Source of the DNA: Planctomycetota bacterium
Lineage (GTDB): Bacteria > Planctomycetota > JAJSAM01 > JAJVHW01
Reading direction: 5' to 3'
NCBI GenBank assembly: GCA_021414065.1
Contig: JAIOPE010000047.1
Span: forward strand, 46,272 to 110,271
Length of the DNA: 64,000 nt
Shown: positions 237 through 32,169 of the stretch, piece by piece
Position numbering within the stretch: the stretch's first letter is position 1
Layout of the letters: every line of letters starts with the position of its first letter
Position numbers and translations under genes: made by a program
Notes under the pieces: generated by a model
What the model was told of the DNA's origin: nothing
Database searches by the model: none
The model's input: only the letters and a program-made list of their open reading frames with translations

Positions 237-2966
237 TCACGCGAACCCTCGCGAACTGTCCGGGCTAACACTGGCCTCACGAACCCGGCCCTCTTCGAGA
301 CGCAGGCGTCGCCACGTCGGGTCGTCCCAGAACGCGCGGCGGACAGCTTCTTCGCCGTCGAGAAGCGCGCGGAACTTCGACCCCGCGCGCGCGGCGAGGT
401 CGGCAGGCAGACCGTCTTCGACAACGCGGCCCGCATCCAGCACGAGCACGCGCTCCATCGTCTGCGCCTCGGTCACGTCGTGCGTGATCCACAGGATCGT
501 GGCGCCCCGCCACTTCGCCCGGGCGCGATCGAGGAGCAGTCGCCGCTGGTCGCGCGGGAGACCGCGGAACGGTTCGTCGAGAATGACGAGTCGCGGCGCC
601 GCCCTGGCGAGCCCGCGGGCGAACCGCACGCGCTGCCCTTCGCCACCCGAGAGCAACCCGCCGCCCTCGCCGAGGTCAGTCTGGAGCCCCTGCGGCAAGC
701 GGTCCACGACGCGGTGAAGTTCCGCGGCCGCAAGGATCTCGGCGACAGGGAGCGGCTCGGCGTGATCGTTCCCGTAGGCGATGTTGTCGAGGAGCGAACG
801 GTTCCAGAGGCGCACCGCCGGATCGATCCACACGGTCTCGCGACGCAGTCGTTCGAGGCGCGCGCGGTCGAGCGTCTCGCCGTCCACGACGACGCGGCCC
901 TGCTCCGCCCGGTGCCATCCGAGCAGCAACGCCGCGAAGCTCGACTTGCCCGCACCGGACGCGCCGACGACCGCGACGTGACTCCCCGGCGGGATCTTCA
1001 GGTCCACGCCGTCGAGCACCGTGTGCCCCGCCGCAACGACGCGAACGCCCTCGAACGCGAGATCGGCGCCGGGCGGCAGCGCCGCGCGGGCGGCGTCGGA
1101 CCGAACCTGCGGGGCGGACTCCTCCTCGGGCGTGCGGAGCGGTTCGATCGCGCGCAGGAACAGGTTTCGATGGATCGGAAGCTGGCGCACGACGCGCGCG
1201 ATCTCGTCACCGAACATCGGCAGCGCGAGCGCCCAGAACGCGAGCAGGAGCACCGTCGTGGGGCTCTGCCCGCGTGCCGCGTAAGACTGCACCAGCAGGA
1301 ACGCGCCCCCGAAGCCAACGATCGCCTGGATTGCATCGACACGGACGGCCGTCCGCACGAACTCGGCCGTGGACCGCGACCACTCGACGAGCAGACTCTC
1401 GTGCTCACGCCGAACGGCACGCTCGGCGCCGTGCGCGCGCAGCGGCGCGAGGCCGAGGAGCGCGTCGAGGTAGAAGCGTCCGAGCGCGCCGGTGTGGGTC
1501 CGGGTGCGGAGGTCCGTCTCCGCGAGCTTCTTCGCGAAGAGCAGCGGGACGATCACCGCTGCCGCGGCGGCGGCCGCAGCGAGATACAGCGCATCGGGAT
1601 CGATCCACACGATCGCGACGGCCGTCAGCGCCAGCGACGCGACCGCGCGGACGAGTTCGCCGAGAACGCGCGGGAGCACGCGAAGCTGATGGAGCGAGTG
1701 CCCGCGCTCGGCCATGTCCGAGACCGGCCGCGTCTGGAAGTAACGGTCGGAGAGGCGCGGGATCTTCTCCGACAGCGCCACCCGCATCCGCACTTCGAGT
1801 TGTCGGCCGAGACGCGCGAGCCCGCCTGCGATCCCAAGTTCGAGGAGCAGCAGCGCGCCGAGGAAGAGCCCGAGCACGCCGAGCGCCGTGAGTCGTTGCG
1901 GAACGAGCGTGAGGTCCTGCCCCACTTCGAGGAGTGCGCGGAGAACGACGCCTTCGACGACCGTTCCCGCGGCGACGACGAGCGTGGCGAGCATCAGCAC
2001 GAGCGTCGAGATCAGCCCGCCGCGCAACGTCCAGCGGACGACTTCGAGCCACGGTCGCACGGGCTTCTCGTCGAGCGCGGCAGCGAGCGTGCGCGACGTC
2101 GGCGTCTCCGCGGCGGCCCCGGCCTTGCGCCCGCCGAGCGTGAGGAACACGGCGCCTCGGAGGATGACGTCCTCGGTGTGCCGTGCGCCATCTGTCGTGC
2201 CGACCGTCGCTCCCTCGACCGGCGGCGCCGCGCGCACGCTCCATGCGTCCGGCGGGATCTCGACACCGCCCTCGCCGCGGGCGAGCGTCGCCACGAGACG
2301 CGCCGCCGCACCGCCACGCGCAACGCCGCCGGCCTCGGCGACGTCTTCGACGAACCGCACCGCTGCGTCGAGGCGCGCCAGCGCAAGCCAGGCCGACGTC
2401 GCAGGCGTCGCACCGCCCGGTGGGACCGCCGCCTCGTACATCGCACGAGCGTCCGCGGCGGCGCCGAGTCGCGCGGCGCGCCGCAAGAGCCCGTCGCGCC
2501 AACTGTCGCTCGCCGCCCACGACATCCATGCATCGGCGGGAAGCCGCTGCTCGTGGATGTAGACGTCGTCCAGGAACCGCCGCTTCGACACCCAGCGCCG
2601 CCCCACGGCCGGGTCCATCAACTGCACGAGCGGCCCGTGAACGCGCCAGAGCACGACGAAGTGCGTCATGCCGCCTTCCAGCACGACGACCACGATCGAC
2701 GGCGTGGCCTCGGTCTCCGGAAGCAAGAGGTGATCGAGCGGCGCCATCGACTGCGTCGCCTCGAGTCCGATCGCCTTCGAGATGTCTTCGAGTGCGTTGA
2801 TCGACGTGCCGTCTACGTCGGTCTGGCACGCCTCGCGGAGGCGTGCGTAGCTGAGACGCACGCCAAGGCCCTGCGCGGCGGCGGCGAGCGCGGCCGGTCC
2901 GCAGTCCATCGCCGAGGTCTGCACGACCTCGGGAACGAGCAGGCGCCGACGCGAGGCGGCGCTCAC
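237..2966 (-). CDS. ABC transporter with N-terminal C39 (double-glycine) peptidase domain; peptide/bacteriocin-exporter type
   Basis: 909-aa ORF. N-terminus has a C39 Cys motif (QTSAMDCGPAALAAAA) and a downstream His motif (THFVVLW). Hydrophobic TM core in the middle. C-terminal ABC ATPase with Walker A GASGAGKSS, signature LSGGEGQR and Walker B ILDEP. 4-bp overlap with the upstream HlyD gene. Confidence 0.85.
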   Translation of the reverse strand: MSAASRRRLLVPEVVQTSAMDCGPAALAAAAQGLGVRLSYARLREACQTDVDGTSINALEDISKAIGLEATQSMAPLDHLLLPETEATPSIVVVVLEGGMTHFVVLWRVHGPLVQLMDPAVGRRWVSKRRFLDDVYIHEQRLPADAWMSWAASDSWRDGLLRRAARLGAAADARAMYEAAVPPGGATPATSAWLALARLDAAVRFVEDVAEAGGVARGGAAARLVATLARGEGGVEIPPDAWSVRAAPPVEGATVGTTDGARHTEDVILRGAVFLTLGGRKAGAAAETPTSRTLAAALDEKPVRPWLEVVRWTLRGGLISTLVLMLATLVVAAGTVVEGVVLRALLEVGQDLTLVPQRLTALGVLGLFLGALLLLELGIAGGLARLGRQLEVRMRVALSEKIPRLSDRYFQTRPVSDMAERGHSLHQLRVLPRVLGELVRAVASLALTAVAIVWIDPDALYLAAAAAAAAVIVPLLFAKKLAETDLRTRTHTGALGRFYLDALLGLAPLRAHGAERAVRREHESLLVEWSRSTAEFVRTAVRVDAIQAIVGFGGAFLLVQSYAARGQSPTTVLLLAFWALALPMFGDEIARVVRQLPIHRNLFLRAIEPLRTPEEESAPQVRSDAARAALPPGADLAFEGVRVVAAGHTVLDGVDLKIPPGSHVAVVGASGAGKSSFAALLLGWHRAEQGRVVVDGETLDRARLERLRRETVWIDPAVRLWNRSLLDNIAYGNDHAEPLPVAEILAAAELHRVVDRLPQGLQTDLGEGGGLLSGGEGQRVRFARGLARAAPRLVILDEPFRGLPRDQRRLLLDRARAKWRGATILWITHDVTEAQTMERVLVLDAGRVVEDGLPADLAARAGSKFRALLDGEEAVRRAFWDDPTWRRLRLEEGRVREASVSPDSSRGFA

Positions 2967-4144
2967 TCCGTCTTCGTCCCGCTCGGCTCGTCGCTCCCGC
3001 CGGCGAGGAGTCGCCCGGCCGACCGGAGCGCGAGGGCGAGCGGCGAGACGCGTTCGACGTCCACCTCCGCGGTGCAGCCGAGGCCGTGCTCGAGCGGGAT
3101 GAACGATGTCTGCGAGGTGTCGATCGTCAACTCCGCGCGGAACGTGCCGTCGGCCTCGGGCGTGCCGAGGGTGGTGACGGTCGCCGCGACGGTGCCGAAT
3201 CGCGTCCAGTCGAAACCGTCGAAGCGCAGACTCACCTTCTGCCCCGGACGCACGCGTCCGGCGGTGCGAAGCGGGAAGCTCGCGACGACGCGCGGCGTGC
3301 CGCGGGGCACGATCACGCAGAGCTTCTGCGCGAGTTCGACGACGGACCCGGCGCGGACGGCCGCCACTTCGCCGATGCGGCCCCCGATCGGCGCACGCAC
3401 CGTGAACTCGGTCACGTCGTGCTCCAAACGGCGGATCGTCGCGACTTCCACGGCAACCGTCGCGTCGAGGTCGGCGATCTCCCGTTCGAGTTTCGACACG
3501 CGCGTCGCGCGGTCGGCGCGGTCCACCGCGGCGCCTGCGGAGAGCGTGTCCGCCTCGATCTCGATGGTCCGCACGCGGGCACGAGCCGCATCCGCCTTCG
3601 ACCGGGCCTCGCGCGCTTGCTCCTTCGGCATCGCGTTCCGCGCGGCGAGGTCTTCGGCGAGCGTGGCCTGATGGTCGCTCAGGGCGACCTGCACGCGGGC
3701 TTCGTCGGCGCGGAGGCGCGCTGCCTCGATCAGCTTCGTCGTTGAAAGGTCCACCGATCCGTCGGCCTTGCTTTCGGCGTCGATCTCGCGGCGGATCGCG
3801 GCGATGCGCGGCGCGACCGACGCAATCCGCGAGTTCGCCGACTCAATGTCGATTCGCACCGCCTCGGCGTCGAGTTCGACGAGCACGTCCCCCGCCGCGA
3901 CCTGCGCGCCGAGCACCATGTACACCGACGACACGCGCCCGTCGCGCGGCGTGCCGACAGTCGTCGCGGCCTGATCCACCTCGACGCGCCCCGCCACCGA
4001 CACTTCGCGCAGCGTCACCTCGCTGGTCACGCCCCACACGGCCCACGGCACCAGCACGGCCGCCGCGGCGACGACGAGCGCCGAGCGCCCGATCGTGCGA
4101 TCGGTGCGGAGACTGCGGAGCGTCTGAGCGAAGGCGGCGGGCAT
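2963..4144 (-). CDS. HlyD-family membrane fusion/secretion protein
   Basis: N-terminal TM helix (IGRSALVVAAAAVLVPWAVWG) followed by long coiled-coil segments typical of HlyD. The track ORF (574 aa) is over-extended by an Arg-rich N-terminus; start re-set to ATG at 4144 (MPAAFAQTL...). Immediately upstream of, and overlapping, the ABC gene. Confidence 0.8.
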   Translation of the reverse strand: MPAAFAQTLRSLRTDRTIGRSALVVAAAAVLVPWAVWGVTSEVTLREVSVAGRVEVDQAATTVGTPRDGRVSSVYMVLGAQVAAGDVLVELDAEAVRIDIESANSRIASVAPRIAAIRREIDAESKADGSVDLSTTKLIEAARLRADEARVQVALSDHQATLAEDLAARNAMPKEQAREARSKADAARARVRTIEIEADTLSAGAAVDRADRATRVSKLEREIADLDATVAVEVATIRRLEHDVTEFTVRAPIGGRIGEVAAVRAGSVVELAQKLCVIVPRGTPRVVASFPLRTAGRVRPGQKVSLRFDGFDWTRFGTVAATVTTLGTPEADGTFRAELTIDTSQTSFIPLEHGLGCTAEVDVERVSPLALALRSAGRLLAGGSDEPSGTKTE

Positions 4145-4230
4145 CGGGGACGTGATGAGACCGGGGCGGAGCGCCGCGCGAAAGCGGAAACCCGCGCGAC
4201 GGCGCTCGCCGCCCGCTACCTTCCGCGCCC

Positions 4231-5361
4231 ATGACCGATTCCAACCATGCCGCGGATGCGGCCTCCGCCGACGCCGAGATCGACCGCGCCATCGAACTGC
4301 ACGCGCAGGCCCAGGCCCTCCACGCACAGGGAGACGCGCGCGCGGCGACCCAACTTGCAGCGGCAGCTTCCGCCACCCTGGATCGATGCCTCGGCGAGGG
4401 CCACCCCGACTCCGCGAACGTGCGAAACCTCGTCGCGCATCTCGCGGTCGAGAACGCCGACCACGCCGCGGCCATCGCGCTCTACGAGCGTTCCGTCGCG
4501 GCCCTGGAGAAGACGCGCGCCGAAGACGGCACGAGCGAGCCGATCGAGCGGATCTACGTGCAGTCACTTGAGGGACTCGGGAACTCGCTCCGCGCCGCCG
4601 CGCGGTACGCCGAGGCCGAACCCGTGCTGCTGAAGGCGCTCGCGGCCGCCGAGGCGGGCCTGCCCGCGGGCGACGCCGACATCGCAAACTGCCTGAACAA
4701 CCTCGGGATGTTCTGCAAGTACACAGCGCGTTTCGACGAGGGCCGCGCCTGGTACGCGCGGTCGCTTGCGATGGCCGTCGCGAACGTAGGCGAGGACCAC
4801 CTCGACGTGGCGTCGATCTACCACAACCTCGGCGGCATCGAGCACACGGCGGGCAACTTCGCGGCGGGCGAACCCTGGGCGCGCAAGTCGGTCGAAGTGC
4901 GGGAGAAGGCTCTCGGCCCAGACCATCCCCACGTCGCGGCGGACGTCGCTGCCTTGGCAGCGTTGCTCGACGGGCTCGGGAAGTGGGACGAGGCCGAGGC
5001 GTGCTACCGCCGCGCGCTCGCGACGTTCGAGAAGCTCTACGGGCCGAATCACTACGAGGTCGCGTTCAACCTCGGCAACCTCGCGACGCTCGAAGCGAAC
5101 CGCGGGCGACGCGAGGAGTCCCGCGCGCTGTACGTCCGCGCCGTCGACACGCTGCGCCGTGTGCTCGGCGAACGTCACCCCGAGGTCGGCCTCTTCCGGC
5201 AGAACCTGGGCGTGCTCCTCCACGAGATGGGCCTGCTCGCCGAGGCCGGGCGCGAGTTCGACGCGGCGCTGCCGATCCTGGAATCGTCGCTCGGCCCGGA
5301 CCACCCGACCACCGCCGCCTGCCGGAAGAACCGCGACGACCTCCACCGCGGCCCGAAGTAG
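4231..5361 (+). CDS. Stand-alone TPR-repeat protein (TPR_12/kinesin-light-chain type), same repeat type as the kinase C-termini
   Basis: 376 aa. Repeated 'LGPDHP..A....NLG' TPR signatures (LGPDHPHVAAD, YGPNHYEVAFNLGNLA, LGERHPEVGLFRQNLG, LGPDHPTTAA). No kinase domain. Confidence 0.75.
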   Translation: MTDSNHAADAASADAEIDRAIELHAQAQALHAQGDARAATQLAAAASATLDRCLGEGHPDSANVRNLVAHLAVENADHAAAIALYERSVAALEKTRAEDGTSEPIERIYVQSLEGLGNSLRAAARYAEAEPVLLKALAAAEAGLPAGDADIANCLNNLGMFCKYTARFDEGRAWYARSLAMAVANVGEDHLDVASIYHNLGGIEHTAGNFAAGEPWARKSVEVREKALGPDHPHVAADVAALAALLDGLGKWDEAEACYRRALATFEKLYGPNHYEVAFNLGNLATLEANRGRREESRALYVRAVDTLRRVLGERHPEVGLFRQNLGVLLHEMGLLAEAGREFDAALPILESSLGPDHPTTAACRKNRDDLHRGPK

Positions 5362-5391
5362 CCACGTCGCTTCCTTCCCAGGGTCGATTTC

Positions 5392-5425
5392 GAAATCTCC
5401 GGATTTCCATGAACAGATCCGTCGC
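5392..5425. promoter_or_regulatory. Conserved divergent-intergenic motif, copy 1 (gaaatcTCCGGATTTCC...)
   Basis: One of 10 similar elements, all 75-120 bp upstream of a small repeat-protein ATG. Coordinates approximate (+/-5). Confidence 0.4.
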
Positions 5426-5501
5426 CCGATTGCGCTCGGAGAGGTGTGGGACGCGCACGACGCGCGACCCGGACACGAACGAACGCAACGGAGACACGAC
5501 C

Positions 5502-6029
5502 ATGAAGATCAACACGACGGTGAAGGCGGGCGGGCTCGGTTTCAACCACGCGGCGAGCGTCCGCTCGGCCGTCAAAGCCGGCGGGATGAGCGCCAACCAC
5601 GCCGCTCCGGTCCGCTCCACGGTCAAAGCGGGAGGCACCGGCGGCAACCACGCGGCGGGTGTTCGCTCGACGGTCAAGGCCGGCGGCAGCGGCGTCAACC
5701 ATGCAGCAACCGTCCGCGCCACGGTCAAGGCCGGCAGCATCGGCTTCAACCACGCCGCTCCGGTCCGCTCGACGATCAAGGCGGGAGGCCGCTGCACCAA
5801 CCACGCGGCTGGCGTCCGCTCGACGATCAAGGCGGGCGGCAGCGGCGTCAACCACGCGGCAACCGTCCGCGCCACGGTCAAGGCCGGCGGGTTCAGCTAC
5901 AACCACGCGGCTCCAGTCCGCTCGACGATCAAGGCCGGCGGCATTCGCGGCAACCACGCGGCAACCGTCCGCTCGACGGTGAAGGCCGGCGGGATCAGCC
6001 AGAACCACGCCGCGTCCGTCCGCGCCTGA
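5502..6029 (+). CDS. Small tandem-repeat protein 1 (175 aa; ~10 x 17-aa repeats NHAAxVRSTVKAGGxxx)
   Basis: ATG at 5502 preceded by GGAGA (caacGGAGAcacgaccATG). Protein is MKINTTVKAGG followed by repeated NHAA.VR[ST].VKAGG units, ending NHAASVRA*. 51-bp DNA periodicity. The track ORF 4983..6029 is over-extended. Confidence 0.8.
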   Translation: MKINTTVKAGGLGFNHAASVRSAVKAGGMSANHAAPVRSTVKAGGTGGNHAAGVRSTVKAGGSGVNHAATVRATVKAGSIGFNHAAPVRSTIKAGGRCTNHAAGVRSTIKAGGSGVNHAATVRATVKAGGFSYNHAAPVRSTIKAGGIRGNHAATVRSTVKAGGISQNHAASVRA

Positions 6030-8471
6030 TCATCCCTCCCGGCGGGGCGACGTCACTTCGACCGCCGGGGAACCAACCTCCTCGCTCGTGCCTGCGCTCC
6101 GCAGGATCTCGGCGAGGAGGTCGTGCATCGATGTGGTGCGCGGCGAGTTCCCGGCCGCAGCCAGGATGTCGATGGCGCTTCGCACCTGACGCTCGGCCTC
6201 GTCTCGCCGTCCGAGATGGTGCAGGACGCGCGCGAGCTGCCCGCGGGACATCGCGAGCCGCGGGTCGGTCGGGACGACGATCCGCGCGATGTTGTCCACC
6301 ACTTTGCGGAGCAGCACCTCCGCTTCGTCCCACCGGCCCAGGTCCGCGAGAAGCGTCGCGAAGTTGTGCATCGCCGCGACGGTCCCGATGTGGCTCTCGC
6401 CCTGGATCTCGGTGAGCACGACGAGCGACTCTCCGAGCGCCGCCTCGGCCTCGGCGTGGTGCTCGGGCCGGAGCGCCAGGATCGACCCGAGGTTCGAGAG
6501 CGTGCGAGCGACCAGCGGGTGCTTCTCGCCCAGAGTGCGACGTCGCGACGCGAGGCACTCGCGCAGGAGCGCGACCGCTTCGTCGGACGTCCGATCCACC
6601 TCCTTGATCGCGAGCGCCAGGTTGTTGCAGGAGAGTTGCGTCACCTCGTGGTCGGGACCGACGACCCGCCGTGCGCGTTCCAGCGTGTCGCGGAGGATCG
6701 TGATCGCCTCCTCGTTCCGACGCGCACAGGTGAGGGCGTGCGCCAGGTTTGACTGGAACTGGAGCGTCTCCCGGTGGTCCGGGCCGAATCGCCGGGCGGC
6801 GAGGCGCGCCACGCGCTCGAGTTCGGTCGCCGACTCCGCGAAGTCGCCCATGTAGCCGAGCGTGACGCCCAGGGCGGACCGGATCTCGATCGCCATCGGC
6901 TCCGATTCGTCGCCGGCCCGCAGCGCCGCGGCGAGCGAGCGGCGGCCCGACACGAGCGCCTCCGGCGCCTGCCCGAGCCCGAGCCGGCACGTGGTGATCG
7001 TGTAGAGCACCGACGCGAGAATCTCGGGCCGGTCGGCGAACGACCGCTCGGCGTCGTCCGCGGCGCGATTCAGCAGGTCCGCCACGCGCACGTCGCGGCC
7101 GTCGCGGTCCGGGTCGGCGGAGGCGAGCATCGACTCGAGGAACTTGCGGATGCGGTCCGCCTTCTCGCGTTCGACCTCGGCGCGGGCGAGCGCCGCGCGC
7201 GTCTCGGCCTCGCGCTCGATCGCGAGGCGTTCGTTCGCCTCGGCGCGGAGCACGGCGGAGCGGAGTTCGGCGTTCCGCGTCTGCTGCTCGACGAGCAGGT
7301 CGGTCAGGGCGCGCCCGCGCTTCACGCTGCGGAGCCCACGCTCGAGGAGCCCCGCCCGCTTCGCCCGCACCTTCCGCCCGGTGATCGCCGCACGCAGGTC
7401 GTCGGCGAACGCCGCCGCGGAGGCGTACCGCCGCTCCCGGTCCTTCTCGAGCGCGGCGAGCACGACCGTCTCGAGGTCCTTCGGGATCGCGGCGTTCAGC
7501 GCAGTCGGCGGGTCCGGCTCCCACGTCTGGATGCGGCGGAGCACCTCGTGCGTCGTCGGCCCCGGGAACGGCAGGCGGAGCGTGAGCGCTTCGTAGAGCG
7601 TGGCGCCGAGCGAGAAGACGTCGGTCCTCGCGTCGAGCGAGTCGGTCGCGCCGGACGCCTGCTCGGGGCTCGCGTAGTGCGGCGTGCCGACGAACCCGTG
7701 CGTCAGCGTGAGCGTGGCTTCGTCCTCGACCGAGGCGAGGCCGAAGTCGAAGAGCAGCGCGAACCCGTCGCGCCGCAGCAGCACGTTCGACGGCTTCACG
7801 TCGCGGTGTACGACGCCCGCGCCGTGGGCGTACGTCAGCGCGTCGGCCACGTCGATCACGGACTGCACGACCGCGCGCCACCACGGCCCGGACCACCGTT
7901 CCGGCGTCGGCGAGACTCCCGCCGCGCGTGCGAAGTCCTCGCCCGTCAGCGAAGCTGCGTCCCGCCCGCGGACCGACTGGATCGCCGCCGCGAGCGTTCC
8001 GCCTTCGACGTACGCCATCGTGAAGTACGGCTGCCCGTCGTCTTCGCCCATGTCGTAGATGGGAACGACGAGCGGGTGCGAGAGCCGCGCCACGGCTCGG
8101 GCCTCGCGCAGGAACCGTTCGCGGGCCTTCCCGGCGGCGAGTCGCCGCGGGAGCACCTTCAGGGCGACGGTGCGGCCGAGCTTCGTGTGCCGGGCGAGGT
8201 GGACCTGCCCCATCCCGCCGCGTCCGAGTTCCCGCAGGATCTCGTAGCCCGCGAACGTGGGCGCCGCGGCCGGCCGCCGCGTGACGGCCTTCGACGCGAG
8301 GTCGATCACCTCACGGAGCCGCGCGTGCAGGTCCGGCCGGTCCGGGAGCAGCGCCGCCGGGTCCGCGGCGCGTCCTTCTGCGAGGTCGGACATCACCTGT
8401 CCGAACAGCGCGTCGAGGATCGCTTCGTCGGCGTCTCCGTGGTCGTCGGCGCCGAGGTCGGGAGCCGTCAC
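6030..8471 (-). CDS. Ser/Thr protein kinase (Hanks type) with C-terminal TPR repeats, STK1
   Basis: 813 aa. Motifs GRGGMGQVHLA, VALKVL, HRDVKPSNVLL, DFGLA, GTPHYASPEQ. C-terminal ~450 aa of TPR repeats. ATGA overlap with the upstream ECF gene. Confidence 0.85.
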   Translation of the reverse strand: MTAPDLGADDHGDADEAILDALFGQVMSDLAEGRAADPAALLPDRPDLHARLREVIDLASKAVTRRPAAAPTFAGYEILRELGRGGMGQVHLARHTKLGRTVALKVLPRRLAAGKARERFLREARAVARLSHPLVVPIYDMGEDDGQPYFTMAYVEGGTLAAAIQSVRGRDAASLTGEDFARAAGVSPTPERWSGPWWRAVVQSVIDVADALTYAHGAGVVHRDVKPSNVLLRRDGFALLFDFGLASVEDEATLTLTHGFVGTPHYASPEQASGATDSLDARTDVFSLGATLYEALTLRLPFPGPTTHEVLRRIQTWEPDPPTALNAAIPKDLETVVLAALEKDRERRYASAAAFADDLRAAITGRKVRAKRAGLLERGLRSVKRGRALTDLLVEQQTRNAELRSAVLRAEANERLAIEREAETRAALARAEVEREKADRIRKFLESMLASADPDRDGRDVRVADLLNRAADDAERSFADRPEILASVLYTITTCRLGLGQAPEALVSGRRSLAAALRAGDESEPMAIEIRSALGVTLGYMGDFAESATELERVARLAARRFGPDHRETLQFQSNLAHALTCARRNEEAITILRDTLERARRVVGPDHEVTQLSCNNLALAIKEVDRTSDEAVALLRECLASRRRTLGEKHPLVARTLSNLGSILALRPEHHAEAEAALGESLVVLTEIQGESHIGTVAAMHNFATLLADLGRWDEAEVLLRKVVDNIARIVVPTDPRLAMSRGQLARVLHHLGRRDEAERQVRSAIDILAAAGNSPRTTSMHDLLAEILRSAGTSEEVGSPAVEVTSPRREG

Positions 8472-9088
8472 GCGCCCGCCGAGCCCGAGCGCAGGGCCTC
8501 CAGCGCCGCCACGTACAGGGCCGTCCCGCGCCGAAGGCGGTACCAGCCCGCGGAGAGGCCGATCCCGAGTTCCGCCACGACGTTCTCCATCGGCCTCTCT
8601 TCGAAGAGGTGAAGGCGCAGCACGGCCTCGAACTCCTCCGGGAGGCTCTCGAGCGCCTGCTGCATCAGCACCGCGCGTTCACGGTGGCTCGCGATACGAC
8701 TCGGCGTCACGGACCCCGCCGGGAACAGGTCGGTGACGGACCCGTCGGCCGGCGGGGCGAGGTCGCCGAAGCCGACGGCGGGCGTCTCGCCGCCGCGCTT
8801 TTCGGCCGACGCACGTCGCGCGATGTCGGTGACGCGGTTCCGCGCGATCGTGAGGAGCCACGAGCGGTAGTCCTTCACGCCCGTCCAGCGGTGCTGCTCG
8901 CGGTCGCGCCACGCGGCGATGAGCGTCTCCTGCCAGACGTCCTCCGCCTGGCAGCGCGCGCGGACGACCGGCCCCATCATCCGGCCGATCGCGACGAGCA
9001 CGCCGTCGGGTCCGACGCTCTCGATGAGCCGGTCCCACTGCGCGGGGTCTGCGTGCGGCGCGCCGGCGAACGTCGCGTCGTCGGTCAC
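8468..9088 (-). CDS. ECF sigma factor (ECF-a), STK-associated type
   Basis: Sigma-2 (AEDVWQETLIAAWRDREQHRW...LLTIARNRVTDIAR) and sigma-4 (LPEEFEAVLRLHLFEERPMENVVAELGIGLSAGWYRLRRG). Inferred GTG start (VTDDATF...) overlaps the TGA stop of upstream ECF-b (GTGA). Stop overlaps the STK1 start (ATGA). The track ORF (364 aa) is over-extended. Confidence 0.75.
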   Translation of the reverse strand: MTDDATFAGAPHADPAQWDRLIESVGPDGVLVAIGRMMGPVVRARCQAEDVWQETLIAAWRDREQHRWTGVKDYRSWLLTIARNRVTDIARRASAEKRGGETPAVGFGDLAPPADGSVTDLFPAGSVTPSRIASHRERAVLMQQALESLPEEFEAVLRLHLFEERPMENVVAELGIGLSAGWYRLRRGTALYVAALEALRSGSAGA

Positions 9089-9708
9089 GGCGTCCCCCGG
9101 GGCGGCTCGGACCGCGAGTCGAACCCCGCGAGCGCCGCCGCGTACGTTTCCGACGCCTTGCGGAATCGCCTCCACGCGGCCGAGAGCGAGATCGAGCGCT
9201 CCGCGGCGATCGACTCCATCGTGCGTTCCTCGAAGAGGTGCGCGGTGAGGAACTCGCGGTCGTCGTCGCCGAGCGTCGCGAGCGCGTCGGACATGCGCCG
9301 GGCCCGTTCGGAGTGATGGGCGACGCGGGACGGCGTGGTCGAACCCGCGGGGAGATACGCCTCGAACGGGGCGCTCTTCCCGCCGTCGATGTCGCCGAAC
9401 AGCCCGGTCCGCTTGGCGCCCCGCTTCACGGTCCCGAGGCTGCGGGCGATGTCGCGGATGCGGTTGCGGGCGATCGTCACGAGCCAGGTGCGGTAGGCCT
9501 CCGGCGTCTCCCAGCGGTGCTGCGCCCGGTCCCGCCACGCGAGGGCGAGGGTCTCCTGCCACACGTCCTCCGGATCACACCAAGCGCGGACGTGCGCCCC
9601 CATCGACGACGCGATCACGACGAGGAGCGAATCCGGTCCGACGGAGTCGATGAGGGCATCGAACCGGGCGGCGTCCATGTGGGGCGGAAGGGGCGTGTCG
9701 GCGGTCAT
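9085..9708 (-). CDS. ECF sigma factor (ECF-b), in tandem with ECF-a
   Basis: MTADTPLPPHMDAARFDALIDSVGPD...PEDVWQETLALAWRDRAQHRW...; sigma-4 REFLTAHLFEERTMESIAAERSISLSAAWRRFRK. ATG at 9708. 207 aa. Confidence 0.8.
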   Translation of the reverse strand: MTADTPLPPHMDAARFDALIDSVGPDSLLVVIASSMGAHVRAWCDPEDVWQETLALAWRDRAQHRWETPEAYRTWLVTIARNRIRDIARSLGTVKRGAKRTGLFGDIDGGKSAPFEAYLPAGSTTPSRVAHHSERARRMSDALATLGDDDREFLTAHLFEERTMESIAAERSISLSAAWRRFRKASETYAAALAGFDSRSEPPRGTP

Positions 9709-9758
9709 CGGTGGAGGGCGGGAGTCTACCGACGCGGACGCCCAGATCCGCCCACCGG

Positions 9759-9786: not shown

Positions 9787-9861
9787 CCGTCGCAACCACG
9801 CTCCCTGGATTGTGAGGACCGCACGACGCGGTCCGACGGAACGACGAACGGAGAGATGAAC

Positions 9862-10263
9862 ATGACGAACACCACGAAGACGGTTTCCTCGGCGACGGTT
9901 CGGACTGCGGTGACGGCGGGCGGCATCCGCGCGAACCACGCGGTGCCGGTCCGCTCGGTGCTCACGGCCGGCGGCTGCAAGCCGAACCACGTCGCCCCGG
10001 TGCGCACCACGGTCGTCGCCGGCGGCGTGCGGAAGAACCACGCTCCCGTCATCCGCACGGCGGTCACCGCCGGAGGCGTGAAGAAGAACCACGCCGCCCC
10101 GGTCCGCACGGCGGTCGTCGCCGGTGGCGTGAAGATTAACCACGCTCCGGCCGTCCGCACGGCACTCACCGCCGGCGGCATCAAGGTCAACCACACCCCG
10201 GCCGTCCGCACCGCGGTCGTCGCCGGCGGCGTGAAGGCCAACCACGCCGCCTCGGTGCGGTAG
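9862..10263 (+). CDS. Small tandem-repeat protein 2 (133 aa)
   Basis: GGAGAGatgaacATG; MTNTTKTVSSATVRTAVTAGG then 17-aa NHA(A/V)PVR[ST].V.AGG repeats; ends NHAASVR*. Confidence 0.8.
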   Translation: MTNTTKTVSSATVRTAVTAGGIRANHAVPVRSVLTAGGCKPNHVAPVRTTVVAGGVRKNHAPVIRTAVTAGGVKKNHAAPVRTAVVAGGVKINHAPAVRTALTAGGIKVNHTPAVRTAVVAGGVKANHAASVR

Positions 10264-10280: not shown

Positions 10281-12776
10281 TCACTCCCGCTTCGTGCCGC
10301 GAACCGCGGCGGCGGAGCGGGAGTCGCCCGCGGCTTCCAACGCCGCCGCGAGCCGGTCGCGGATCGGGGCCAGCTCCGGCTCGTCCTCGACCATCCCGGG
10401 GCTCGCCTCGACGGCGCGCGTCCACATCGCCAGCGCTTCCGCAGTACGAGACGCCGACAGCATGCGCGGAACCGCGAGCAGCACCGCGCCCTCGACGAAC
10501 TGGTCCCGCCCTTCCACCGGCAGCGCCTCGTCGAGCGCCTGCAGGCCGCGGCGGATGGCCTCGTCGTCGTGCCCGAGCGCCGCCTCGATCTCGCCGAGTT
10601 GTCTCACGGTGAGCGTCCGCATGTCCCAGCCGACGGGGCCGCGCGCGAGCGTCACTTCGACCAGGTCCGCCTGCTTCGCCCTGGCTTCGTCGAGTCGCCC
10701 CGCGCGCTGCAACGCCCCGCAGAGGTTGTGGACCGCGACGACCGTGCGCATTCCGGAGGCGCCGCACTGCGCCTCGGTGGCCGCCGCGACGCGCGAGAGC
10801 ATCGCGACGGCCTCGTCGGTCTTCGACTCTTCCGACAGCAACTGCCCGAGCAACGCCGCAGTCGCTACGGCGTTGATGCTCGACGCCCCCTCCACGGCCT
10901 CCCGGCGGGCGAGCACGTCGCGGAGCAGCGGGATCGCATCGCCGTTCCGGCCGAGGAACGAGAGCGCCAGCCCCATCTCGTGGCCGGCGCGCAAGGCCAG
11001 CGGGTCGTCGGCGCCCCGCGCAGCCGTGGCCGCGTCACGGACGCCCCCGAGCAATCGCGTCGCCTCGTCGTACCCGTCGCCCGAGACGAGCACGGACGCA
11101 AGGTCCACCGACGCCTCCAGCCGGACCGAGTCCGAGGGCGGCAGCGCCGCGGCGGCGCGTTCGACGCACGTGCGGAGCAGCGCCGTCGCCTCCGCGAGGC
11201 GTCCGACGTTGCTGAGCGCCATGCCCTCCGCCGACCGCGCCCGCAGCTCGCCCCGGACGTCGCCCGTCGCGGCGTGGGCTGCGGCCGCAGCCCGGCACGG
11301 GGCCACCGACTCCTCGACGAGGCCCATGTTGTAGAGGGTGTCGGAGATGGCATCGAGCACGGCCGCGCGCGTCGCGGCGTCGCCCGCGAAGCGCGTCTCC
11401 GCCGTCTTCGCCGCGCGCTGGAGCACGTCCACGACGCGGGCCTCGCGCCCGTCCGCATCGGGGTCCGCCGACCGGAACGCCTCGAGGAGGAACTGCGTCA
11501 CGCCGTCGGCCCGATTGCGCTCCGAAGTGACGCGCGCCGTGGCCGCCATCTGCTGGACGAGGAGCGCCGTCGGCGTGCCGACGACGAGCAGGAGTCCGAG
11601 CAGGATCGCCGCGGCCGCCGCGCGGTTGCGTCGCGCCCAGCGGACCGCCCGGCCCGCAGCGCCAACCCGACGCGCCGCGATCTCGCGCCCCTCGACGGCG
11701 GCGCGCAGGTCCGCCGCGAAGTCGGCGGCGGTCCGGTACCGCCGCGAGACGTCCTTCTCGAGCGCCCGGTGGACGACGGTCGCGAGGTCGGCGCGAATCC
11801 CGCCGTTCAGGCTCCGCGCAGCCGACGGCTCACGCGTGCGGACTGCCGTCAGGATCTCGTGGGTGCTCGGGCCGGAGAACGGGCGCGCGAGGGTGAGAAG
11901 TTCGAACAGCGTCGCGCCGAGCGACCAGACGTCGGTCCGCGCGTCGAGGTCCTTCGCCGCACCGGCCGCCTGCTCGGGGCTTGCGTAGTGCGGCGTCCCC
12001 AGGAAGTCGCCGCTGATCGTGAGGGTCGCCTCGCTCGCGTCGTCGGCGAGTCCGAAGTCGAAGAGCAGGGGCCGCGCGTCCGACGTCCGGACGATCACGT
12101 TCGACGGCTTGACGTCGCGGTGGACGACCCCGTGCGTATGGGCGAAGTGGAGCGCGTCGGCGACGTCCGCGACGAGGAGCGCCGCCGCGTCGGCGTACGA
12201 CGCCGGCCAGGTGCGCGGAGGGGCCGCACCCGTGCAGGCGAGCGCGAGATCCGTCGCGGCGAGATCGCGCACCGGGCGCGCGCCCGCGCGGAGCCCGTCG
12301 ATGACCTGGGCGAGCGTGCGGCCCGCCACGAGTTCCATCGCGAACCACGCCTGGTCGTCGCTGTCGCCCGACTCGTACACGCGGACGATCCCCGGATGCT
12401 CGAGCCTGGCGACCGCGCGCGACTCCCGCTCGAACCGCTCCCGCGTGCGGGACGACGCGAGGCGCCCGGGCAGGAGCTTCAGGGCCACCACGCGTCCGAG
12501 CCGCGCGTGCCGCGCCCGCCAGACGTGCCCCATCCCGCCGCGTCCGATCTCCTCCTCGATCTCGTATCCGCCGATCTCCGGCCGTCGCACGGGGCGCCTC
12601 GGCGCGATCCGCTGCGCGAGTTCCCACGTCTCGGCCACGCGGCCGCGCAAATCCGGGCGCCCCGGGAGCGCCGCGTCGAGGTCCGGCGTCCTCCCGGCCG
12701 TCACGTCGCCCACGAATCGGCCGAGGAGTTCGTCGAGGAGAGCGTCGTCGGCACCCGATTCCGTGTCTCCCGGCAT
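10281..12776 (-). CDS. Ser/Thr protein kinase with C-terminal TPR repeats, STK2 (no adjacent ECF)
   Basis: Start re-set to ATG 12776 (MPGDTESGADDALLDELL...). Kinase motifs GRGGMGHVW, HRDVKPSNVIV, DFGLA, followed by a TPR-rich C-terminus. The upstream intergenic region leads directly to divergent small gene 3. Confidence 0.8.
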   Translation of the reverse strand: MPGDTESGADDALLDELLGRFVGDVTAGRTPDLDAALPGRPDLRGRVAETWELAQRIAPRRPVRRPEIGGYEIEEEIGRGGMGHVWRARHARLGRVVALKLLPGRLASSRTRERFERESRAVARLEHPGIVRVYESGDSDDQAWFAMELVAGRTLAQVIDGLRAGARPVRDLAATDLALACTGAAPPRTWPASYADAAALLVADVADALHFAHTHGVVHRDVKPSNVIVRTSDARPLLFDFGLADDASEATLTISGDFLGTPHYASPEQAAGAAKDLDARTDVWSLGATLFELLTLARPFSGPSTHEILTAVRTREPSAARSLNGGIRADLATVVHRALEKDVSRRYRTAADFAADLRAAVEGREIAARRVGAAGRAVRWARRNRAAAAAILLGLLLVVGTPTALLVQQMAATARVTSERNRADGVTQFLLEAFRSADPDADGREARVVDVLQRAAKTAETRFAGDAATRAAVLDAISDTLYNMGLVEESVAPCRAAAAAHAATGDVRGELRARSAEGMALSNVGRLAEATALLRTCVERAAAALPPSDSVRLEASVDLASVLVSGDGYDEATRLLGGVRDAATAARGADDPLALRAGHEMGLALSFLGRNGDAIPLLRDVLARREAVEGASSINAVATAALLGQLLSEESKTDEAVAMLSRVAAATEAQCGASGMRTVVAVHNLCGALQRAGRLDEARAKQADLVEVTLARGPVGWDMRTLTVRQLGEIEAALGHDDEAIRRGLQALDEALPVEGRDQFVEGAVLLAVPRMLSASRTAEALAMWTRAVEASPGMVEDEPELAPIRDRLAAALEAAGDSRSAAAVRGTKRE

Positions 12777-12817
12777 GGGCGGAGAGTCTGTCCGCCCGAC
12801 GCGCGCCGCGCCCGCGG

Positions 12818-12937: not shown

Positions 12938-13489
12938 ATGACGAAGACGATGAAGACGGTCGCGACGACGGTGCGGACGGGCCTGAACGCAGGCGGGAAG
13001 TCGCTGAACCACGCGATCGCGGTGCGCTCGACCGTTGCCGCGGGCGGCAAACTGTTCAACCACGCCGCGACCGTTCGCAGTGCGGTAGCTTCCGGCGGGC
13101 GCACCCTGAACCACGCGGCCGCAGTGCGCTCGGCGGTTGCCGCGGGCGGCAGGCTGTTCAACCACGCGGCCGGGGTTCGCTCGACGGTTGCCGCCGGCGG
13201 CAAGATGTTCAACCACGCGATCCCGATGCGCTCGACAGTCGTCGCAGGCGGGCGGTCCCTGAACCACGCGGCGAGCGTCCGGACGGCGGTGGCCGCCGGA
13301 ACGAAGAACTTCAACCACGCCGCGAGCGTGCGAACCGCCGTGGCCGCGGGCGGGAAGAACTTCAATCACGCCGCTTCGGTTCGCACTGCGGTGGCGTCCG
13401 GCGGGCGGAACCTGAACCACGCCGCAGTCGTTCGCTCGACCGTGGCCGCGGGCAGCAGGATGTTCAACCACGCGGCGGCCGTCCGGTAG
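12938..13489 (+). CDS. Small tandem-repeat protein 3 (183 aa)
   Basis: GGCGGAGAgtcgaacATG; MTKTMKTVATTVRTGLNAGG then NHA.AVRS.VA.GG repeats. Confidence 0.8.
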   Translation: MTKTMKTVATTVRTGLNAGGKSLNHAIAVRSTVAAGGKLFNHAATVRSAVASGGRTLNHAAAVRSAVAAGGRLFNHAAGVRSTVAAGGKMFNHAIPMRSTVVAGGRSLNHAASVRTAVAAGTKNFNHAASVRTAVAAGGKNFNHAASVRTAVASGGRNLNHAAVVRSTVAAGSRMFNHAAAVR

Positions 13490-16361: not shown

Positions 16362-16808
16362 ATGGCGAACACGACGAACGCGAAGATCACCGTGCGGACT
16401 GCGATGACGGCGGGCGGGCTGAAAGCGAACCACGCTGCCGTGGTGCGAACAGCCGTGGCGTCCGGCGGATTGAAGACGAACCACGCTGCACCGGTCCGTG
16501 CCACAGTGCGCGCCGGCGGACTCAAGAGCAACCACGCCGCCGTCGTGCGTACGAACGTCCCGGCCGGCGGACTCAAGCAGAACCACGCTGCCGCGGTCCG
16601 TTCCACCGTGCGCGCCGGCGGACTAAAGAACAACCACGCGAGCCCCGTGCGCACGAACGTCCTGGCCGGTGGCATCCAGCAGAACCACGCTGCCGCGGTC
16701 CGTTCCACCGTGCGCGCCGGCGGGCTGAAGAACAACCACGCCAGCGCCGTGCGCACGAGCGTTCTGGCCGGCGGAGTCAAGCAGAACCACGCGCTCTCGG
16801 CGCGCTGA
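16362..16808 (+). CDS. Small tandem-repeat protein 4 (148 aa)
   Basis: aacGAGGAGAgacgaccATG; MANTTNAKITVRTAMTAGG then NHAA.VR[ST].V.AGGLK repeats; ends NHALSAR*. Confidence 0.8.
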   Translation: MANTTNAKITVRTAMTAGGLKANHAAVVRTAVASGGLKTNHAAPVRATVRAGGLKSNHAAVVRTNVPAGGLKQNHAAAVRSTVRAGGLKNNHASPVRTNVLAGGIQQNHAAAVRSTVRAGGLKNNHASAVRTSVLAGGVKQNHALSAR

Positions 16809-19445: not shown

Positions 19446-20068
19446 GGCTGCGGTGGCGAGACGGACCGACTGCGAAGCACTTCGAGCCGCTTCGTATACG
19501 CCTCGAGCGCCTTGCGGAACCTGCGCCACGCGGCGGAGAGATGGATGCCCATCTCGCCCGCGACATCTTCCATCGGCCGCTCCTCGAAGAGTCGCGCCTG
19601 CAGGAGCGCCTGGTCCTCTTCCGGAAGCTCCGCGAGCGCCGCGAGCATCACGCGGGACCGCTCTCGCGACGACGCAACGCGACTCGGCGTCTCCGACCCC
19701 GCGGGCAGGAGGTTCCCGAGCGACGACACGCCTTCGGCCTGCTCGAAGTCGGAGAACAGCGCTCGCGTGCCCTTGCCGCCTCGCTTCTCGGTGGTGGCGT
19801 CGCGTGCGATCTTGCGGATGCGGTTTTTCGCGATCGTGATGAGCCACGATCGATAGGCCCGGACGTCGGTCCATGTGTGTTGCGCCCGGTCCCGCCAGGC
19901 GAGGGCGAGCGTCTCCTGCCAGACGTCCTCCGCCTGACACACGCCGCGCACCACGGGCCCCATCGACCGGTCGATGATCACCAGGATCGAGTCCGGACCT
20001 GCCTCGTCGATGATCGCGTCGAAACGCGACGGATCGAGATGGTCCCCGGGTTGCGTCGGCTCGCTCAC
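19442..20068 (-). CDS. ECF sigma factor (ECF-c)
   Basis: ...DPSRFDAIIDEAGPD...AEDVWQETLALAWRDRAQHTW...LPEEDQALLQARLFEERPMEDVAGEMGIHLSAAWRRFRK. Start uncertain: the only in-frame candidate after the upstream gene's stop is GTG at 20068 (VSEPTQPGDHL...). Confidence 0.7.
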   Translation of the reverse strand: MSEPTQPGDHLDPSRFDAIIDEAGPDSILVIIDRSMGPVVRGVCQAEDVWQETLALAWRDRAQHTWTDVRAYRSWLITIAKNRIRKIARDATTEKRGGKGTRALFSDFEQAEGVSSLGNLLPAGSETPSRVASSRERSRVMLAALAELPEEDQALLQARLFEERPMEDVAGEMGIHLSAAWRRFRKALEAYTKRLEVLRSRSVSPPQP

Positions 20069-20099
20069 GCGGCCATCGTCGCTTCCGTTTGCGCCCGCG

Positions 20100-24765: not shown

Positions 24766-24821
24766 GGCACTGGGTCCGGTCGGGACGGGGAGGATCCCGT
24801 GCGTCGCGGAGCGATCGTCAC

Positions 24822-28529: not shown

Positions 28530-28595
28530 GGGCGGGCGAGGATACCCCGGCGAACGTCGTGAAGTGGCGTCCGGCGCGGCGAGGAATCCGCGCTC

Positions 28596-32116: not shown

Positions 32117-32169
32117 GCGCAAACTCCTTGCTGTGCATGGGTTGTCGCCGACACGCCGACCCGGGCCGC

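Follow-up and report, generated by a model that had tools for sequence, protein, structure and literature searches.

The locus described here raises the question of what a row of ten tandem-repeat genes, set beside one peptide exporter, is made for. The window, that is, the whole 64,000-nt stretch analysed (Planctomycetota bacterium, assembly GCA_021414065.1, contig JAIOPE010000047.1, positions 46,272 to 110,271; G+C 72%), begins with a peptidase-containing ABC transporter (PCAT) and its HlyD-family membrane-fusion protein, followed by the repeat genes R1 to R10 among genes for Ser/Thr kinases and extracytoplasmic-function (ECF) sigma factors (Table 1). A sequence-only reading of this DNA had proposed that each repeat protein is a polyprotein cut after every Gly-Gly into 17-residue peptides on export. 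Overall, the locus is probably a regulated secreted-peptide system, and it is plausible that the repeat proteins are polyproteins from which many small peptides are cut and secreted. The preferred explanation, that the R genes encode precursors of an undescribed family of short-leader double-glycine peptides, cut and exported by the PCAT under sigma-factor and kinase control, stands just below an even chance.

Repeat proteins and exporter

The ten repeat genes lie on the plus strand and encode products of 109–212 residues built of 51-nt tandem units with the consensus xxxNHAAxVR(S/T)xVxAGG. Tandem Repeats Finder detects the 51-nt arrays in all ten, with scores of 135–625 and nucleotide matches between units of 64–76%, and every gene has a GGAG-type ribosome-binding site 6–9 nt before its ATG. 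Each protein opens with a Thr/Lys-rich segment of 11–23 residues, which ends in AGG, as the sequence-only reading had stated of a short N-terminal segment, and no Sec signal peptide is evident there on inspection. This segment is followed by 5–11 internal units, and the last unit of each protein is truncated, stopping at ..NHAAxVR(A). The earlier estimate of 8–11 related 17-mers per precursor and about 90 peptides in all becomes 6–12 NH units per protein and a total of 85, of which 75 are internal and 10 are truncated C-terminal units of 9–13 residues. The 17-residue repeat is the rule and not a constant: 65 internal units have this length, while five have 18 residues, four have 16 and one has 22. 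Gly-Gly likewise closes most repeats and not every one, the 85 junctions comprising 78 GG, four GS, one GT and two AG. The residue preceding a junction is mostly Ala, with Ser in a minority.

Counted back from the presumed cut, Asn-His at −14/−13 is invariant, Arg at −8 is present in 64 of the 65 17-mers, −9 and −5 are Val or Ile, −7 is Ser or Thr, and A-G-G at −3 to −1 is nearly fixed. Position −12 is Ala, −15 is frequently Leu, Phe or Met, and the other hydrophobic residues stand at −5 and −9. The variable positions are the three residues after each GG together with −10, −6 and −4. At −4 the Lys and Thr that the sequence-only reading had called frequent do occur (15 and 6 of the 65 17-mers), but Ala is the commonest residue (19), and Val (11), Arg (5) and Gln (3) are also found. 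All 75 internal units differ from one another in sequence, and the variable tripeptide has a signature particular to each paralogue, such as ..M in R10, ..F/Y in R7 and LK. in R4. Because the units have diverged this far in nucleotide sequence, yet N, H, R and AGG are nearly invariant, selection appears to act on the motif, and recent duplication does not account for it. Super-repeats of 102 and 153 nt overlie the 51-nt unit with 80–84% matches (for example at 5515–6026, 16413–16792 and 36393–36755), and two or three unit types alternate, such as NHAAAVRSTV.. and NHAAPVRT.V.. in R4 and R6. The 22-residue unit of R7, TKFNHAAIVRNAVVRTAIVAGG, looks like an internal five-residue duplication of the VR..V segment, and the C-terminus of R7, ..NHSVAMPRAR, is atypical.

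The PCAT (909 residues) combines a Peptidase_C39 domain (PF03412, 4e-20, residues 14–132) with ABC_membrane (residues 319–552) and ABC_tran (residues 651–800) domains in the same polypeptide, as identified with Pfam. Its first 149 residues align to the structures of PCAT1 (4RY2) and ComA (3K8U), with the catalytic set in register: the oxyanion Gln (in VQTSAMDCG), Cys (in MDCG), His (in HFVV) and Asp (in DP). Since all four residues are matched, the N-terminus is a true protease domain and not a Cys-less C39-like one. The HlyD gene overlaps the PCAT start, so that the window has every feature of the PCAT/AMS class: a C39 domain with its Cys, His, Asp and Gln, ABC membrane and ATPase domains and a HlyD partner. 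The claim of a genuine C39 exporter thus holds, and from its domains and catalytic residues the PCAT looks competent for cleavage and export. No second ABC gene (ABC2) is present in the 236 bp of the window left downstream of the PCAT gene. Between the C39 and membrane domains lies an Ala-rich insert (residues 133–318), which is probably a subfamily trait, because the total length is matched in orthologous open reading frames (903 residues in locus L003 and about 907 in L070).

The peptide family and its neighbourhoods

The R proteins match no Pfam or NCBIfam family (R1 has no match, R9 gives noise in NCBIfam, and Pfam returns sub-threshold DUF noise), and full-text literature searches for the sequence motifs returned no paper. 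A word-indexed protein search gave 26 hypothetical proteins as relatives, the closest relative of R1 being 40–62% identical, and the assembly collection records no gene whose product is exactly the PCAT or R1. In a profile search of 1.84 billion representatives, 1,102 clusters at 50% identity were found at E <= 1e-3 and 132 at E <= 1e-10, and nearly all of the best 150 matches have 50–240 residues. A three-protein alignment search of 185,579 species genomes found no relative, while a DNA pattern for VRSTVKAGG in the species genomes gave eight true loci among 52 matches: two in Polyangia, one in Solibacteraceae, one in Thermoanaerobaculia, two in unclassified proteobacterial metagenome-assembled genomes (MAGs) and two more. 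The metagenome scan with DNA patterns gave 66 loci, all of them true members. The family therefore comprises about 1,100 clusters lacking a Pfam or NCBIfam model, mostly from soil or rhizosphere metagenomes by sample name.

Although the family ranges from single-unit peptides of 22–32 residues to chains of 12 units, all subfamilies share one phase: a mini-leader, n copies of a core plus leader copy, and a final core. The core is NHAAxVR in the window and NHNEALxVR, NHNRxGLKVR, NHAEGIVV or NHNSS.. elsewhere. The mini-leader has the form M[TK]I[RK]T.[LV]KAGG, for example MTIRTQLKAGG, with a modal length of 11 residues (31 of the 85 sequences in the parsed set, to which the ten window proteins belong). 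Internal units have 17–20 residues across the family, 17 or 19 being typical, and their last nine residues resemble the mini-leader. Most tail-less members end 9–13 residues past the last GG, and 28 of 67 have Arg as the last residue. The smallest members make the anatomy plain. In a 22-residue peptide, one of six paralogues in L113, the leader MTIKTNVKAGG is followed by the core LTVQHNESFRR; the single-unit sequences include MTIKTNVKAGGLTVQHNESFRR in L113 and MNTTKTKSRLKVRSTVKAGGLKTCNHSR(A/T)VLS in L023 and L050, and in one such member MNTTKTKSRLKVRSTVKAGG is followed by LKTCNHSRAVLS. Because these members consist of a leader and a core of 11–12 residues, the repeat proteins are best read as (leader-core) x n.

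The NHNEAL subfamily (L003 6199–6642, L070 5192–5632 and many metagenome loci) has a strongly conserved C-terminal tail, ..TTSRKEDRLELLVVRAGLRAGRR. This tail, TTSRKEDRLELLVVRAGLRAGRR, resembles a double-glycine-type leader (E-L-x-x-V-x-A-G) set at the C-terminus and is absent from the window proteins. A GlyGly-CTERM/rhombosortase reading, suggested by the tail of the relatives and a nearby rhomboid, was rejected, because a hydrophobic helix is absent from the tail and the tail itself is absent from the window proteins.

The genomic company of the family was compared at 74 independent loci from soil metagenomes and MAGs. Exporter genes (HlyD, C39-ABC and/or ABC2) lie directly beside family peptide genes in 17 of them, and most of the others are contigs of 1–3 kb. 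In L003 the genes for HlyD, the C39-ABC (C39 58% identical to that of the window) and ABC2 are followed by three peptide genes on the same strand; this order recurs, with a sigma54 activator as well, in L001 and the P0025 contig. The arrangement of these three, sigma54 activator/HlyD/C39-ABC/ABC2, leads directly into three to five family peptide genes. Exporter genes also adjoin peptides in L070, L100, L113, L122, L043, L099, L057, L069, L074, L077, L083, L084, L092, L097 and L114, and the C39 domains of these loci are 57–71% identical to the window domain. Orthologues of the TPR-only protein (44–53% identical) stand beside peptides in L043, L065, L070, L073, L100 and L113. Since the exporter and the TPR-only protein recur beside peptides across loci, both are conserved partners of the peptide genes. 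The proposal that the repeat proteins are exporter cargo gains from this company, and we consider it likely.

The regulators recur as well, across phyla. In L043 (Thermoanaerobaculia) the window module is mirrored nearly part for part, with an ECF sigma factor, a kinase-TPR protein, a peptide, a TPR-only protein, a peptide and an ABC gene. L024 (Solibacteraceae) has a kinase-TPR gene, an ECF sigma gene and two peptide genes, all in one direction. In L050 (proteobacterial MAG) a sigma factor, a single-unit peptide and a methyltransferase face a kinase, a TPR protein and a JmjC oxygenase on the opposite strand, and in L016 (Polyangia) a single-unit peptide is accompanied by two kinases and an FHA-domain sigma54 activator. 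The set of ECF sigma factor, kinase-TPR protein and peptide, with or without the TPR-only protein and ABC gene, recurs in these four loci and in L046, and the link between kinase and peptide is kept in at least 13 loci. The sigma54-linked subfamily (L001, L003, L070, L100, L076, L122 and others) has its own −24/−12 box, YGGCAC-N5-TTGCT, for each peptide gene, and 29 of 42 matches to this box lie within 250 nt upstream of a peptide start. About 1.2 kb away from a family peptide gene, L079 (3045–6173, minus strand) encodes a CHAT (caspase-like) protease with a TPR_10/12 array fused to it. Because of this fusion, the TPR_10/12 arrays beside peptides are seen to pair with a kinase, a protease or no effector.

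Certain neighbours bear on whether the units might instead be the cores of peptides made by ribosomes and modified after translation (RiPPs), in which an enzyme encoded elsewhere would modify Asn-His or Arg before the GG cut and the products would be antimicrobial or metal-binding, not signals. The invariance of Asn-His and Arg in each unit would suit such a role, and PCATs commonly complete RiPP pathways (PMC10885120). In L050 the single-unit peptide is followed directly downstream by a SAM methyltransferase (1918–2976, minus strand) and the kinase-TPR gene by a JmjC/cupin oxygenase (6615–8000, plus strand); these are possible modifying enzymes of this one lineage. A luciferase-like monooxygenase is found near peptides in L113 and L125. 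However, no modifying enzyme recurs across the family loci examined, none lies within or beside the 44-kb window array, and the family loci do not conserve the proteins encoded after the array. The conserved modifying enzyme that marks multi-core RiPP precursors was thus not found, and RiPP cores are a very improbable explanation of the units.

The exporter subfamily itself is wider than the peptide family. More than 1,100 relatives of the window C39 domain were found at E <= 1e-10, the best of them 57–67% identical and named as Gemmataceae, Pyrinomonadaceae, Bryobacteraceae and Polyangia. Five randomly sampled PCAT loci on long contigs, with C39 domains about 60% identical, have no NH-repeat peptide within 10 kb (0 of 5). 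The exporter subfamily is therefore broader than this cargo, and a subfamily dedicated to these peptides was rejected; judged by gene content, the peptides imply the exporter, and the exporter does not imply the peptides. Regulators lie near two of the five sampled loci, in one case an ECF sigma factor with a kinase-WD40 protein and in the other a kinase with an FHA-type sigma54 activator. L126 (3675–7565) is a PCAT/HlyD/ABC2 locus of the same C39 subfamily, in an error-prone assembly, which adjoins a Planctomycete-type ECF sigma factor (PF07638) and a kinase-membrane helix-WD40 protein and has no recognisable family peptide. One of the five sampled loci, L125, has a 46-residue peptide, MKVKSNVRAGLAATLTTTVAGRCGGVTGPIRLPGGGGRCSGIVAVA (7184–7324), which shares with the family only the leader MKVKSNVRAG and has an unrelated Cys/Gly-rich core. 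Its position 1.9 kb upstream of the HlyD/C39-ABC/ABC2 genes suggests that the short-leader cargo of this exporter subfamily forms a wider class.

Regulation, cleavage and their alternatives

Every R gene converges on a Ser/Thr kinase-TPR gene (K1 to K10), and in eight of the ten cases an ECF sigma gene lies before the kinase gene and overlaps its start. The array is irregular in that K2 and K3 lack a dedicated sigma gene and an extra one adjoins S1. A membrane helix separates the kinase and TPR domains in K2, K3 and K4 and is absent from the other seven. The ten kinases have diverged by 21–49% in their kinase domains and by 55–78% in their TPR arrays. In all nine sigma factors the acidic motif of region 2.2, (E/D)D(V/I)WQE, is retained, and no anti-sigma gene was identified in the array, for which no dedicated search was made. 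About 85 nt upstream of each R gene, in the same orientation, lies a 24-nt motif consisting of a GAAATC-N4-GATTTC dyad, followed in most copies by CCGACAC. A position-weight-matrix scan of the whole window gave only one weak match elsewhere, inside K10; a second, weaker copy (16132–16155, plus strand) falls within the K3 start region, some 120 nt upstream of the R4 copy. With putative promoter motifs of their own and sigma factors and kinases for company, the peptide genes are read as individually regulated outputs of dedicated alternative-sigma systems. No family, leader phase, kinase-TPR/sigma module or TPR-only protein had figured as a conserved part in the sequence-only reading.

Under the preferred explanation, each precursor would be a chain of cassettes: a mini-leader M..T.VKAGG, then 5–11 units, then a core ending ..NHAAxVR(A). 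Each unit would consist of a variable tripeptide, an NHAAxVR core and [ST]xVxAGG, the last nine residues copying the leader. The PCAT and HlyD proteins would form the processing and export machine. The cytoplasmic C39 domain would cut after the leader AGG and, most probably, after many or all of the internal AGG copies, and the transporter would export the pieces C-terminal to each cut. The products would be mainly 16–18-mers with one terminal 9–13-mer per gene, some 85 different peptides, and uncut multi-unit pieces might occur among them. The TPR-only protein probably acts as a chaperone or adaptor by binding the part of the precursor that is conserved. Because each R gene has its own motif copy and adjoining ECF sigma/kinase-TPR pair, signals passing from kinase to sigma factor would switch production on module by module. 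The variable residues peculiar to each paralogue have candidate receptors in the TPR arrays of the kinases, which diverge fast, and recognition of this kind would close a pheromone-like feedback loop analogous to ComC/ComAB/ComDE.

Several features favour cutting. The iterated spacer copies the leader, the phase is fixed throughout the family, single-unit members exist, and the final core has no spacer. Within the window, GG or GS is kept at 96% of the junctions despite 25–35% nucleotide divergence between units, and the L125 peptide shares the leader alone while lying near a related PCAT. The fixed phase, the leader-plus-core members and this shared leader sustain the original idea of GG as a processing site. 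Structures of PCAT1 place the C39 domain on the cytoplasmic face, from which it would follow that only the part C-terminal to a cut is exported (PMC6959990, PMC8794836). Full conversion to single units would therefore need repeated cytoplasmic cuts, and partial cutting would export multi-unit pieces that could no longer be cut.

A number of observations weigh against this chain of events. ComA and LahT150 need large hydrophobic leader residues at −4, −7 and −12 (PMC10885120), while the R proteins have A/K/V/T/R/Q, S/T and A at these positions. The 11-residue leader is shorter than known leaders, and no double-glycine leader hidden Markov model of NCBIfam matches the R proteins. Measured against the classical double-glycine leader (TIGR01847), the small residues at −2/−1 agree (78 GG and 4 GS, the 1 GT and 2 AG being atypical), but neither the amphipathic hydrophobic pattern nor a match to a curated leader or precursor model is found. 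Among relatives Ala-Gly is fixed, but the second Gly is replaced at about 24% of junctions (by K, R, D, E, T, Y and others), and AG-K or AG-R stands at about 10%, some first junctions included. As GG makes up only about 76% of the relatives' junctions, cutting at every junction is not universal in the family. No outer-membrane channel gene was identified among the annotated genes of the window, and PCATs with C39 domains about 60% identical occur without an NH-repeat peptide, as described above. On the regulatory side, the divergences of R and K proteins are uncorrelated across the ten paralogues. Without a membrane helix, seven of the ten kinases would have cytoplasmic TPR arrays to which exported peptides are not directly visible, and the sigma factors, by keeping the acidic region 2.2, are not phospho-switches of the ECF43 type. 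Finally, the AlphaFold2 model of R9 (mean pLDDT 69.8, pTM 0.57, 35 sequences) is a beta-solenoid with two strands per unit, which fits an intact folded product. On balance, cutting at the first GG is fairly likely, and cutting at most junctions is a tentative proposal.

The R9 model raises the possibility that the R proteins are exported whole, with the mini-leader or nothing removed, and form, as surface or matrix repeat proteins, a beta-solenoid or cross-beta fibre on or outside the cell, in which Asn and His would make ladders and GG would make turns. The solenoid of R9 is regular, with 120 residues at pLDDT 70–90, and that of R1 is weaker (mean pLDDT 53.7, 10 sequences in the alignment). 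VRSTVKA shows an alternation of polar and apolar residues, the invariant N, H and G resemble those of solenoid turns, and the K, R, D or E found for the second Gly in relatives suits turns and not C39 sites. In a PCAT, moreover, cargo C-terminal to the first cut leaves at once. AlphaFold2 is, however, prone to build solenoids from any short Gly/Asn repeat, and a Foldseek search of the model against the PDB gave no significant relative (all E > 0.9, TM < 0.4). Single-unit members of 22–32 residues could not form a solenoid alone, the repeat number is free, from 1 to 12, and gene-by-gene control by alternative sigma factors with kinase linkage is more typical of signals or toxins than of structural proteins. 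An exported solenoid or fibre is thus unlikely, though it deserves consideration.

The cytoplasmic kinases allow a different account, in which the R proteins stay inside the cell as multivalent ligands, pseudo-substrates or substrates of the TPR kinases or the TPR-only protein, with their Arg-Ser/Thr sites phosphorylated, and the PCAT either only removes them, in a secretion-coupled regulation like that of FlgM, or has another cargo. The seven kinases without a membrane helix, the fusion of the TPR_10/12 module beside peptides to a kinase, to nothing or to the CHAT protease of L079, the nearly invariant R-[ST] at −8/−7, the kinase-peptide link of at least 13 loci and the occurrence of the PCAT subfamily without these peptides would all suit this account. 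It meets peptide genes immediately downstream of HlyD/ABC1/ABC2 at many loci with no kinase in the available sequence (such as L003, L070, L100 and L122). The conserved N-terminal AGG leader and the leader-only similarity of L125 point to export, and the window modules have no phosphorylation-dependent domain, such as FHA. A purely intracellular role is therefore quite unlikely.

Returning to secreted peptides, signalling is the leading functional idea, drawn by analogy with the streptococcal systems compared below. TPR arrays that read peptide residues would fit the greater divergence of TPR arrays than of kinase domains, the conservation of the TPR-only protein across phyla and the tripeptide signatures of the R proteins. 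Pairing of R genes with kinases by co-divergence was tried and rejected, since neither register gave a correlation (Spearman rho from −0.19 to 0.06), and R8/R9 with K8/K9 are the sole pairs that fit convergent R(n)-K(n) pairing. In its strongest form, a pheromone polyprotein whose iterated leaders are chopped by the C39 domain, with ten orthogonal channels each having a cognate kinase-TPR receptor, an ECF sigma factor and auto-induction, the idea is doubtful. If true, it would add to cell-cell signalling a new class that is widespread among soil Acidobacteriota, Myxococcota, Planctomycetota and Proteobacteria. We know of almost no signals for pairs of Ser/Thr kinase-TPR proteins and ECF sigma factors, and the peptide family, being tied to such pairs, would, if each unit is released, offer a concrete candidate ligand or output for this class of regulator.

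Past the last sigma gene lie a 572-residue protein without a Pfam match and with one hydrophobic N-terminal stretch by eye (43603–45321, minus strand) and a rhomboid protease fused to a TPR region (45355–46545, minus strand). These two and a 185-residue protein after the array were rejected as parts of the system, as none has a counterpart in the 74 family loci. An Rfam scan of the window gave no match.

Table 1. Features of the peptide, exporter and regulator array, in window coordinates
Feature	Coordinates	Strand	Description	Evidence
PCAT	237..2966	-	C39 domain (residues 14-132), Ala-rich insert of ~185 residues, membrane domain, ATPase domain	Pfam; structure alignment
HlyD	2963..4144	-	HlyD-family membrane-fusion protein	HlyD_3, HlyD_D23 (Pfam); type_I_hlyD 5e-27 (NCBIfam)
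TPR-only	4231..5361	+	TPR-only protein, TPR_10/TPR_12 type	Pfam; conserved partner of peptide/exporter loci
R1	5502..6029	+	175 aa; leader MKINTTVKAGG, 9 internal units, terminal ISQNHAASVRA	
R2	9856..10263	+	135 aa, 7 NH units	
R3	12938..13489	+	183 aa, 10 NH units	
R4	16362..16808	+	148 aa, 8 NH units	
R5	21222..21551	+	109 aa, 6 NH units	
R6	24923..25468	+	181 aa, 10 NH units	
R7	28703..29149	+	148 aa, 8 NH units (one of 22 aa)	
R8	32270..32653	+	127 aa, 7 NH units	
R9	36130..36768	+	212 aa, 12 NH units (units of 16-18 aa)	
R10	40105..40500	+	131 aa, 7 NH units	
K1	6030..8471	-	Ser/Thr kinase with TPR_10/12 array, no membrane helix; convergent with R1, stop codons abut	Pfam
K2	10281..12791	-	Kinase, membrane helix, TPR; start approximate; no adjacent sigma gene	
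K3	13533..16079	-	Kinase, membrane helix, TPR; start approximate; no adjacent sigma gene	
K4	16866..19433	-	Kinase, membrane helix, TPR; start approximate	
K5	21596..24121	-	Kinase-TPR, no membrane helix; start approximate	
K6	25480..27897	-	Kinase-TPR, no membrane helix	
K7	29115..31499	-	Kinase-TPR, no membrane helix; start approximate	
K8	32672..35275	-	Kinase-TPR, no membrane helix; start approximate	
K9	36776..39325	-	Kinase-TPR, no membrane helix; start approximate	
K10	40505..42919	-	Kinase-TPR, no membrane helix; start approximate	
S1	8468..9100	-	ECF sigma; 3' end overlaps K1 start	Sigma70_r2/r4_2 (Pfam); Sig-70_plancto1 4.5e-17 (NCBIfam)
Extra sigma	9085..9726	-	ECF sigma paralogue adjoining S1; start approximate	tblastn; sigma region 2.2 motif
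S4	19442..20086	-	ECF sigma; start approximate	
S5	24121..24768	-	ECF sigma; start approximate	
S6	27894..28541	-	ECF sigma	
S7	31487..32119	-	ECF sigma; start approximate	
S8	35302..35943	-	ECF sigma; start approximate	
S9	39322..39969	-	ECF sigma; start approximate	
S10	42913..43542	-	ECF sigma	
Motif, R1	5392..5415	+	24-nt motif, ~85 nt upstream of R1	
Motifs, R2-R6	9760-9783, 12821-12844, 16255-16278, 21119-21142, 24822-24845	+	Copies upstream of R2-R6	
Motifs, R7-R10	28601-28624, 32171-32194, 36031-36054, 40008-40031	+	Copies upstream of R7-R10	

Comparison with known systems

A close functional parallel is with the streptococcal ComC/ComAB/ComDE and BlpC/BlpAB/BlpRH systems (PMC7595303), in which a double-glycine peptide, a C39-ABC transporter with an accessory or fusion protein and a dedicated kinase and regulator share one locus, and the peptide gene is a regulated output, as here. 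The regulators differ, however, since a Hanks-type Ser/Thr kinase-TPR protein and an ECF sigma factor (a sigma54 activator in some relatives) take the place of the histidine kinase and response regulator. The leader of 11–23 residues has no hydrophobic pattern at −4/−7/−12/−15, and each precursor has 6–12 cores, every one of them preceded by a separate leader copy. A single exporter serves ten paralogous modules, and most of the sensor domains are cytoplasmic.

The export genes are most similar to those of the NHLP/Nif11 bacteriocin export systems (TIGR03794 HlyD, TIGR03796 ABC1 with C39, TIGR03797 ABC2), which give the best NCBIfam matches for the window ABC and HlyD proteins. The relatives share the three-gene set, followed by several precursor genes with (A)GG leader ends. 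The scores are nevertheless far under the cut-offs (190 against 853 bits for the PCAT, whose best match is NHLM_micro_ABC1, and 46 against 156 bits for HlyD). The window has no ABC2, and its precursors have tandem repeats instead of an NHLP or Nif11 domain, which places them outside these families.

For the regulators the nearest comparison is ECF43 (EcfP/PknT and EcfK/PknS; PMC13147305), where likewise a Hanks-type kinase shares its operon with an ECF sigma factor and no gene for an anti-sigma factor can be seen. That the neighbouring kinase phosphorylates the sigma factor directly is established for ECF43 (PMC13147305, PMC7826278), in which the acidic DxxD of region 2.2 is lost and a phosphorylatable Thr stands in its place (QTTA consensus; PMC13147305). 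The window sigma factors adjoin kinases and have no identified anti-sigma gene, but unlike ECF43 they retain the acidic region 2.2, and seven of the ten kinases are soluble, with TPR arrays.

Tandem short peptides separated by protease-site spacers, with many peptides per product, are also known from Kex2 repeat proteins, yeast alpha-factor, the cyanobactin PatE and multi-core graspetides (PMC10885120, PMC8939145). Those systems use Kex2 at dibasic sites, PatA/PatG, or one leader with several cores. In the window, by contrast, the spacer repeats an export leader of the double-glycine type, and the exporter itself would do the cutting with its C39 domain. The novelty claimed by the sequence-only reading for a multi-core organisation has to be narrowed accordingly: multi-core precursors with C39 exporters exist for graspetides (PMC8939145), but no described case was found in which each core has its own GG mini-leader. 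The tandem mini-leader/core cassettes are thus a variation on the double-glycine/PCAT theme, in a family that has not previously been described.

Double-glycine peptides and PCAT exporters are well known and, to our knowledge, always pair one leader with one cargo. If each unit is released, the locus would provide the first example of a precursor with an iterated export leader, in which a single translation product gives many peptides. A C39 domain that recognises a short, non-helical-looking leader of 9–11 residues would, if confirmed, broaden the substrate rules of PCATs and provide a new tool protease.

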